NCBI GenBank assembly: GCA_964016885.1
Contig: OZ024740.1
Span: 436,976,001-437,040,000 of the forward strand
Length of the DNA: 64,000 nt
DNA from: Eledone cirrhosa
Taxonomy: Eukaryota
Reading direction: 5' to 3'
Made by a program: the position numbers and the translations under genes. Below are positions 46,102 through 48,307 of the stretch, one piece after another. Below the pieces are notes generated by a model. That model worked only from the letters and a program-made list of their open reading frames with translations. It made no database searches and was not told where the DNA came from. Position 1 is the stretch's first letter, and each line of letters starts with the position of its first letter.

Positions 46102-46404
46102 TCGAAATTTAACAAAGGAATGTAATAAACAAAATCCATGGGGCTGAAAAGCAGAGACAGGAGGGCGGCCGAACATTTACCAGCTTCTAGCCCGGTCAGC
46201 CGCTCTCTCTCTCTCTCTCTCTCTCTCTCTCTCTCTATATATATATATATATATATATATATATATATATATATATATATATATATATATATATATATAT
46301 ATATATATATATATATATATATATATATATATAAAAGACGTAAAATAAGAAAATCCTTTAAAAAAGTTTTTCAAAAATTTTTTAACTTACTTACTTAAAT
46401 TTTC

Positions 46405-46486
46405 ACTCCAACTAATTAGTTTCTGCAATGGGATAAAGACAGTTACGTAATCTAACTGTCGAGAATTCATTGCGTCATCAGGGAGT
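46405..46486 (-). ncRNA. Type I hammerhead ribozyme
   Basis: actcc-CTGATGA-c-gcaatg..internal gacagtta/taactgtc hairpin..cattgc-a-GAAA-ctaattag-TT-ggagt. Confidence 0.9.
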
Positions 46487-46959
46487 CTATTCTCAGCTAA
46501 GTCTCCAGGCAATGCGCGGACACTGGCGGCTCATATAAAAATAATAATAATTCGGTAGATGGAACAGCTAGCGGGGACTGAATTCCATGCACTGAAATCC
46601 TCATTGCCTCTAGTCAAATGGCCGATTCTAAAGAATCAATCACGTGACACAGAGGCTAGTCAGTAGGAATGGGATGGTAAGATGACAGACGCCTACTAAC
46701 ACCCCCAAAAATTTTAGAAGTGGTTTTGGCAGGTTTGCTCGACAAATCAGTGATTTGGAGATAAATATAGATAATTTAATATATCAACTAACATAAGCGC
46801 ACAGATGTACGCTAATGCCAGCAAATACACAGGTTATGTCATAGTACCTAGGTGGTTCAATGCAGGAGGATGCAGAACAATAATATAAAAGACGTAAAAT
46901 AAGAAAATCCTTTAAAAAAAGTTTTTCAAAAAATGTTTAACTTACTTACTTAAATTTTC

Positions 46960-47041
46960 ACTCCAACTAATTAGTTTCTGCAATGGGATAAAGACAGTTA
47001 GGTAATCTAACTGTCGAGAATTCATTGCGTCATCAGGGAGT
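46960..47041 (-). ncRNA. Type I hammerhead ribozyme
   Basis: Second tandem copy, 555 nt from the first. Confidence 0.9.
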
Positions 47042-47640
47042 CTATTCTCAGCTAAGTCTCCAAGCAATGCGCGGACACTGGCGGCTCATATAAAAATAAT
47101 AATAATTCGGTAGATGGAACAGCTAGCGGGGACTGAATTCCATGCACTGAAATCCTCACTGCCTCTAGTCAAATGGCCAATTCTAAAGAATCAATCACGT
47201 GACACAGAGGCTAGTCAGTAGGAATGGGATGGTAAGATGACAGATGCCTACTAACACCCCCAAAAAAAATTTTAGAAGTGGTTTTAGCAGGTTTGCTCGA
47301 CAAATCAGTGATTTGGAGATAAATATAGATAATTTAATATATCAACTAACATAAGCGCACAGATGTACGCTAATGCCAGCAAATACACAGGCTATGTCAA
47401 TTTTTTTTTTTTGGGGGGGGGGGGGTGTTAGTAGGCGTCTGTCATCTTACCATCCCATTCCTACTGACTAGCCTCTGTGTCACGTGATTGATTCTTTAGA
47501 ATCGGCCATTTGACTAGAGGCAGTGAGGATTTCAGTGCATGGAATTCAGTCCCCGCTAGCTGTTCCATCTACCGAATTATTATTATTTTTATATGAGCCG
47601 CCAGTGTCCGCGCATTTCCTGGAGACTTAGCTGAGAATAG

Positions 47641-47722
47641 ACTCCCTGATGACGCAATGAATTCTCGACAGTTAGATTACCTAACTGTCTTTATCCCATT
47701 GCAGAAACTAATTAGTTGGAGT
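47641..47722 (+). ncRNA. Type I hammerhead ribozyme
   Basis: Inverted third copy with intact core and stems. Confidence 0.9.
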
Positions 47723-48307
47723 GAAAATTTAAGTAAGTAAGTTAAACATTTTTTGAAAAACTTTTTTAAAGGATTTTCTTATTTTACGTCTTTTATATTA
47801 TTGTTCTGCATCCTCCTGCATTGAACCACCTAGGTACTATGACATAACCTGTGTATTTGCTGGCATTAGCGCACATCTGTGCGCTTATGTTAGTTGATAT
47901 ATTAAATTATCTATATATATATATATATATATATATATATATATATATTTATATATATATATATATATATATATATATTAAAATAACAGATTAAAGTTTA
48001 AGCAAAGAATCGCTGCTTTCACTCTTAACGGGATCTTCTGAAACTAAAAAAATCAATCTTTGGATTTTAGTCTTCAAATTTATTATTATTACTATATATA
48101 TATATATATATATATATATATATATATATATATATATATATATATATATATATATATATATATATATAAGCGGAAGGGATATTCAATTTGTTGGTAATTC
48201 AACAAATATAAATGTTTATAACTGATTCAGAGCACTCAACAAGTTTTCTGGAGTATAATACACAATGATATTAAATAAATGGAAACTATATTTATAAAAC
48301 CATATTT

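Follow-up and report, generated by a model that had tools for sequence, protein, structure and literature searches.

Structure of the insertion

The window, a stretch of 64,000 nt from the genome of Eledone cirrhosa, contains a head-to-head insertion in (TA)n which consists of 1.9 tandem 555-nt units and an inverted arm and carries three type I hammerheads. Unit positions are given in the RNA sense, position 1 being the first base after the predicted cleavage. The following features were assigned:

46203-46333: (CT)17(TA)49, the left portion of the microsatellite target; a target-site duplication is unreadable inside (TA)n
46331-47399, minus strand: arm A, covering unit 124-555, 1-555 and 1-82, with its 3′ end at site A (82)
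47400-47920, plus strand: arm B, inverted, covering about unit 251-555 and then 1-204, with its 3′ end at site B (204)
47897-47978: (TA)n, the right portion of the target
46410-46964, minus strand: one cleavage-to-cleavage monomer, 555 nt, 38% G+C, non-coding
46405-46486, minus strand: hammerhead 1, type I by motif scan, with CUGAUGA, GAAA and a GUU triplet, H17 at 46410
46960-47041, minus strand: hammerhead 2, complete type I core, H17 at 46965
47641-47722, plus strand: hammerhead 3, complete type I core, H17 at 47717
46329-46341, minus strand: junction of site A with (TA)n, 897 exact junction matches in the 3.0-Gb genome
47904-47920, plus strand: junction of site B with (TA)n, 538 exact junction matches in the 3.0-Gb genome
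46530-46648, minus strand: putative internal promoter, with an E-box-like word (46639-46648) and a TATA-like word (46530-46539); blocks conserved across sister families
46940-46951, minus strand: conserved words resembling a 5′ splice donor, 14-25 nt downstream of the cleavage

Arm A extends over 1,069 nt of the minus strand with a period of 555 nt, and the inverted arm B over 521 nt of the plus strand. A sequence-only reading of the same DNA had described two near-identical non-coding units of about 555 nt with type I hammerheads at 46405 and 46960, which is borne out by an identity of 97.5% over 517 nt and by complete cores in both. Its term tandem dimer is correct with respect to the 555-nt period, but the second unit of arm A is only 514 nt long, so that the "dimer" amounts to 1.9 units. 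An inverted third copy starting at 47400 had also been recognised correctly (98.7% identity to unit 1), but it ends at 47920 and not at 47915, and its hammerhead at 47641-47722 had gone unlisted. This end lies 122 nt past the phase where the left arm stops.

The longest ATG-initiated ORF on either strand of the unit has 36 codons, and an ORF combining RT and GIY-YIG domains is absent from the retrozyme element. The 555-nt monomer folds better than 100 of 100 shuffled sequences (z = -4.56). We take the two words of the putative promoter to be E-box-like and TATA-like, and a promoter function is presumed from them. The conserved words at 46940-46951 presumably resemble 5′ splice donors; such a word after the cleavage site is retained in the retrozyme family and in two other ORF-less families and is absent from the 785-aa PLE described below. 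It could possibly be a U1 binding site. For an intron spanning unit 16-338, acceptor support was not found.

The hammerhead ribozyme

The hammerhead shows the core elements CUGANGA, GAAA and NUH together with helices I to III and is open at helix I, as in type I ribozymes. An alignment was built from 23 cluster representatives minus five with a broken 5′ flank. In the resulting 18 diverged representatives helix I is paired to 98.6% and helix II to 98.1%, changes on both sides are seen at three helix pairs (in 6, 12 and 9 of the sequences), and the covariation score was reached by none of 500 shuffles. This covariation of the stems extends across ~70%-diverged sister families. Core, helix II and helix III contain none of the 66 family-level polymorphic columns. 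Helix III is a palindrome of 12 nt, whose invariance is imposed by the search word; at pair 10.1-11.1 the bases are mismatched (C-A or A-A). The long helix II has an inner hairpin and an internal loop, and the latter may pair with the 5′ flank:

46460-46495, minus strand: possible pseudoknot of 46489-46495 (5′ of helix I) with 46460-46466 (helix II internal loop), modest support

This pairing comprises 91 pairs, a number reached in 22 of 1,000 partner swaps and in none of 1,000 letter shuffles; on the fixed alignment, in which the loop is misaligned, it is paired to 74%.

From these features, self-cleavage of the retrozyme RNA is predicted. A comparison with the Rfam hammerhead models, suggested by the sequence-only reading as a check, delivered no match at the gathering threshold for the whole window or at E up to 10 for 43000-49000, and the long insert in helix II is a likely explanation. 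Similar to the minimal and variant hammerheads of PLEs (Cervera and de la Pena 2014, PMC4209133), helix I has 4-5 bp, the long helix II has an unpaired base at its foot, and the small palindromic helix III is suited to dimers. PLE-type variants with short helix I, long helix II and palindromic helix III were reported there to cleave poorly and to act as dimers. In contrast to those hammerheads, as far as they are described in PMC4209133, helix II of the retrozyme includes a second hairpin as well as an internal loop, and it may form a pseudoknot with the 5′ flank. In the case of Xenopus retrozyme dimers, eight of nine showed no cleavage in vitro (bioRxiv 10.64898/2026.07.22.740005).

Distribution in the genome

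A 22-nt word from the core has 2,757 exact matches in the 3.0-Gb genome and its reversed control none, so that the family is not a product of chance. It is dispersed, and a single local duplication, which the sequence-only reading had considered as an alternative, does not account for it. A 17-nt word from helix III and the cleavage site has 12,359 exact matches (reversed control 0), a number to which sister families of 70-85% similarity contribute. The best genomic copies are 93-99% alike, and retrozyme sequence is also present in contigs of runs under three organism labels.

One long array lies on contig C2 (312577955-312666754). It is two-armed, comprises about 160 units and ends at site B in TA; one arm takes up 85.8 kb, or about 154 units by length (most of the array was read). 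An internal deletion of unit 336-450 recurs in it, which argues for local higher-order growth.

Further hammerhead repeats were noticed on the way. A distantly related one with a period of about 517 nt (L153:2630-3230, L073, L283) has words of the region between sites A and B and is probably another retrozyme family. A further one (L133:3656-4313, L162, L038) has a CCAUGG helix III, a period of 657 nt and ends at about 273 and 350, and no ORF was noticed near it.

Two fixed ends, one of each per insertion

For the analysis of insertion ends 112 loci were classified, of which 37 were the best-scoring ones, 55 the first places of the core-word list and 20 taken from the site A junction list. They provide 193 3′ ends, and 180 of these fall on two sites: 93 on unit 82 (site A) and 87 on unit 204 (site B), counted from the cleavage point and thus 122 nt apart. 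Genome copies with permuted start points, as the sequence-only reading had expected them, are not what this distribution shows. TA or CT repeats adjoin 179 of the 180 ends. Sixty-five two-armed insertions are situated away from a locus edge; 60 of them join an A end to a B end, five have one interrupted end, and the combinations A+A and B+B do not occur. Hence all 60 intact two-armed insertions have one A and one B end, with an inverted, 5′-truncated arm and a tail on one end only. The tie to the PLE machinery, previously drawn from the terminal inversion and the (TA)n target of one locus, is much stronger than a single locus could show.

Since the ends are fixed at A and B, the third copy in the window is a tailed arm. 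Its outer end is the second fixed priming site and not a circular permutation, in agreement with autonomous PLEs of the same genome. In a PLE with a 775-aa ORF, which we take to be Neptune-like from its CxxC linker, eight of eight two-armed copies pair one end at 122 with one end at 177, and in the window's copy of a 785-aa PLE the ends lie 42 and 153 nt past the hammerhead cut. The stretch of 122 nt between A and B is the "tail" of the PLE literature. Either arm of an insertion may be the longer one and some arm pairs share no overlap, which shows that the second arm is not a fold-back copy of the first; this mode of formation was rejected. At L153:1560-1997 the two arms of one insertion are separated by about 440 nt of unrelated sequence, possibly a captured RNA.

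Insertions of EN+ PLEs are described as having an inverted truncated copy and a "tail" of 30-40 bp at one end (PMC8557442; PMC3846280). For Poseidon of Anolis, two internal RT start sites were found in vitro to define the tail, and an enzyme dimer was predicted to nick and extend both strands (PMC11167929). How tail and inverted arm are formed is treated as an open question in the available text of PMC8557442 and PMC11167929. The retrozyme resembles EN+ PLEs (PMC3846280; PMC8557442; PMC11167929) in its head-to-head arms, AT-rich target and one-sided tail, and in the position of its 3′ ends, which fall on two fixed sites 3′ of the hammerhead. Unlike the EN+ PLEs as described in PMC3846280 and PMC8557442, it has no ORF and its tail measures 122 nt instead of 30-40 bp. 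To these descriptions, as far as their available text goes, it adds the strict pairing of one A with one B end, counted on 60 insertions.

Form of the template

The copied sequence may extend over more than one unit. Out of 163 arms, 55 cross the cut twice or more, with runs of up to about six units. All 245 anchored cleavage junctions are free of indels, a count for which anchors were required and which includes many array units; within these limits it disfavours template jumping from the end of one linear monomer to the next. The divergence among units and arms of one insertion is 1.1-1.5% compared to 6.0% between loci, the same-arm figure being inflated by one locus with two insertions. At the family-polymorphic columns the differences amount to 2-5% within an insertion and 30% between loci. 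The units and both arms of one insertion share a common subfamily haplotype, at least eight haplotypes (counted by eye) are each found as homogeneous multimers, and six rare alleles are fixed across all units of an insertion. Together with the multi-crossing arms and the indel-free junctions, these fixed alleles and homogeneous multimers call for a precise step from monomer to multimer, as rolling on a circle would provide.

The same PLE-driven insertion might, on the other hand, have used a linear multimer transcribed through tandem source loci and left uncut, with the hammerhead mainly trimming RNA ends or being inherited from the parent pLTR and without any circle. Long arrays as possible sources exist, and in an in vitro PLE assay ribozyme cleavage was dispensable and uncut RNA the main template (PMC11167929). 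In addition, 13 rare alleles are common to only some units in eight insertions, which counts against a pure monomer circle, though gene conversion after insertion could also produce such a pattern; in the window, a private G519C change is found in two of the three hammerheads. Moreover, 5′ ends accumulate just after the cut (19 against 6.7 expected, 2.85-fold) and not just before it (4 against 6.3; p = 0.002). This excess agrees with linear templates whose 5′ end was cut, or with stalling, but the adjoining AT-rich bin at 39-57 is enriched as well (2.3-fold), and composition or stalling may thus explain it. A linear multimer would also have to accommodate the homogeneous haplotypes and fixed alleles, and no consistent order of the arms on one linear RNA is found (2 versus 4, with 3 ties). 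Furthermore, circular RNAs were shown for other animal retrozymes (PMC7229834). We regard this account in its full form as possible, if on the doubtful side. With respect to the template alone, the balance between circle and uncut multimer is near even, with a slight preference for the circle, and both may be used.

Bulged hairpins and a candidate enzyme

In the predicted fold of the monomer, a hairpin with a two-base 3′ bulge follows about 6-8 nt 3′ of each start site. The hairpins and a PLE of the window with a comparable arrangement are:

46856-46877, minus strand: bulged hairpin A (unit 88-109), immediately 3′ of site A, repeated at 47804-47825 (plus strand), candidate RT-positioning element
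46738-46760, minus strand: bulged hairpin B (unit 205-227), immediately 3′ of site B, repeated at 47296-47318 (minus strand), of the type seen in a Hydra-clade PLE
10677-14785: two-armed copy of the 785-aa PLE, assigned to the Hydra clade by its motifs, separate from the retrozyme, candidate enzyme donor; hammerheads at 10677-10794 (minus strand) and 14669-14785 (plus strand), ORF fragment at 11860-13407 (minus strand)

A descriptor of these hairpins (YUC, variable stem, two-base bulge, GAR) matches the unit only at 88 and 205, compared to 0.086 matches per shuffled unit; as it was composed after the hairpins had been seen, this comparison overstates the significance. Of 305 read-through copies, among them some from overlapping loci, 256 have hairpin A and 276 hairpin B, and changes in the upper stems are compensatory. 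Other families provide the independent test. In the 785-aa PLE the hairpin follows both ends (at 49 after the end at 42, at 164 after the end at 153), with the ATG at 210. Among 25 entries for other hammerhead families, nine have the hairpin 4-13 nt after an end and 16 do not, some of them for lack of read-through copies. It was found in none of 46 copies of the Neptune-like PLE. While Poseidon starts in an AC-rich stem-loop (PMC11167929), the retrozyme starts just 5′ of a repeated bulged hairpin, and the spacing of the two hairpins would set the length of the PLE "tail" at 122 nt.

The 785-aa protein shows the motifs RWK and DKT, a CxCx5C linker, CxxC, CxH and a C-terminal endonuclease, and its target is (TA)n. 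Judged by these motifs, which correspond to the Hydra-clade features listed in section 11 of PMC8557442, the PLE would belong to the Hydra clade. It is young, with a period of 3.6 kb and many intact copies (e.g. C22:12043001-12050000, L279). From Octopus bimaculoides, Hydra-1_Obim with a (TA)n target is listed in File S1 of the same article. Like the Hydra-clade PLEs described there, the retrozyme has a (TA)n target and a hammerhead, and with the 785-aa family it has the bulged hairpin and the long helix II in common. The alignment with that family does not go beyond short motifs: against the sequence of 42 PLE loci the best match of the unit is short and non-significant (E 0.23-0.8). An alignable autonomous parent was not found by flank comparisons, a relaxed motif search, two PLE protein searches or an inspection of every hammerhead in loci totalling 1.16 Mb; the places listed by the relaxed motif search belong to the retrozyme family, its sisters and one distant relative. 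Two of the many PLE families of the genome were examined in depth. The link to the 785-aa family thus appears to be one of motifs only.

A Hydra-type enzyme priming both target strands with one hairpin each is the most likely reading of these data. As a tentative extension, which we find attractive without giving it even chances, the bulged hairpin would be the recognition element of a Hydra-type RT. Each half of an enzyme dimer would take one hairpin and one (TA)n strand, which would explain the tail, the inverted arms and the pairing, and the retrozyme would be a circular RNA parasite reduced to a ribozyme, a promoter and two hairpins. Alternatively, the ends could be set by microhomology of AT-rich RNA words with a (TA)n primer, and neither the hairpins nor the PLE clade would play a role. 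Both sites do end in ATAT-like words, the Neptune-like PLE has two fixed ends without the bulged hairpin, and the hairpins are thermodynamically weak on their own (z of -0.89, -1.45, -0.08 and +0.94; the first hairpin of the 785-aa PLE is not its minimum-energy fold). However, other TA-rich words of the unit (about 180-186 and 412-433) are not used as ends, microhomology alone would not yield one-of-each pairing in 60 of 60 insertions, and in unrelated families the hairpin is found at a constant offset and shows covariation. We consider microhomology alone unlikely.

Proposed mechanism

In summary, the locus is a single insertion of an abundant family of non-coding retrozymes, and with good probability it was the reverse transcriptase-endonuclease of a Hydra-clade PLE that copied the retrozyme RNA into (TA)n, priming once per target strand at two fixed internal sites, each with a predicted bulged hairpin. 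A promoter in each unit would drive the synthesis of tandem RNA. Judged by structure and covariation, the hammerheads would then cut this RNA, probably as dimers via the palindromic helix III, and release 555-nt monomers, part of which may be circularised. As read from the genomic copies, the cDNA begins only at unit 82 or 204, at (TA)n, and runs back past the cleavage site, free of indels, for up to about six units. The arms started at A and at B, which the two-armed insertions display joined head to head, may result from the action of an enzyme dimer: each half would work with a single hairpin on one of the nicked strands, and the cDNA ends would then be joined. Rare arrays would expand locally afterwards.

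Relation to known retrozymes

The repeat is characterised as a non-LTR retrozyme by its tandem units, of which two or more in succession have a complete type I hammerhead, by its non-coding nature, by the dispersal of the family and by the lack of attachment to an RT ORF. The sequence-only reading had asked whether all genomic homologs might be ends of RT-coding PLEs; in the sampled loci, with five PLE fragments from the window as protein probes, no copy is continuous with a PLE ORF. An origin of the copies as pLTR ends left behind by an undetected autonomous PLE and multiplied as satellite DNA by unequal crossing-over is very improbable and largely refuted: the array of about 86 kb with its repeating deletion did grow locally, and the probes and the sampling cover a part of the PLEs and of the family, but in dispersed insertions the inversion is flanked on either side by arms of several units with fresh A and B ends, the sole same-strand upstream PLE match (locus L170) is separated from the retrozyme by the end of another element and TA, and sister families of 70-80% similarity retain the same unit plan.

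Cervera and de la Pena (2020, PMC7229834) described animal non-LTR retrozymes and their circles and proposed that PLEs drive them, and animal retrozymes were interpreted as non-autonomous PLE derivatives (Li, Clavereau and Pollet 2026, bioRxiv 10.64898/2026.07.22.740005). The repeat is therefore a new family within a class whose existence and PLE origin are already published. In accordance with both accounts it consists of tandem non-coding units with one type I hammerhead each and a G+C content below 45%, and it is present in thousands of copies as monomers, dimers and arrays alongside PLEs; a PLE origin has been proposed for such retrozymes. The unit of 555 nt exceeds the approximately 170-400 nt given in PMC7229834 and lies inside the range of 51-972 bp in the bioRxiv article. 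Cleavage and circular RNA were shown for published metazoan retrozymes, whereas for the present one cleavage is predicted and a circle is plausible. In turn, the available text of both accounts names no insertion-junction rule, fixed start sites, cis-element or enzyme clade. In the full-text literature searched, no account was found of a cephalopod retrozyme, the one-of-each pairing rule or the bulged hairpin; subscription journals, repeat databases and supplements may differ in this respect.

By itself the family is of moderate interest, but its insertion record is unusually clear. So far, proposals on how animal retrozymes re-enter the genome have drawn on co-occurrence and on sequence trees. 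In the family described here the PLE signature can be read from the junctions themselves, which also indicate an enzyme clade. Together, the paired hairpins and the one-of-each rule provide a precise and testable model of PLE priming, for which the genome supplies many intact copies of the candidate enzyme and a natural minimal substrate of 555 nt.

Other elements in the window

Nested insertions accumulate in (TA)n tracts. Stubs of other TA-targeting elements are found nearby at 45796-46200, with a hammerhead-like core near 46045-46110 (minus strand), and at 47974-48093, the latter being a tiny two-armed insert. A 5′-truncated PLE with an RT end and GIY-YIG (Pfam E 1.6e-4) lies at 44816-45886 on the minus strand; it was ruled out as a part of the retrozyme insertion, being 443 nt off, beyond another element and TA. 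At 50747-52132 (L280) there is a two-armed stub of the Neptune-like PLE, which is young as well and has a period of 4.2 kb. Long minisatellites of 24, 39 and 41 nt occupy 1-4126, 27848-29404, 35111-37721 and 49208-49483, the 24-nt ones interleaved with LINE fragments, and an intact-looking LINE ORF of 1,227 aa is located at 58659-62342.
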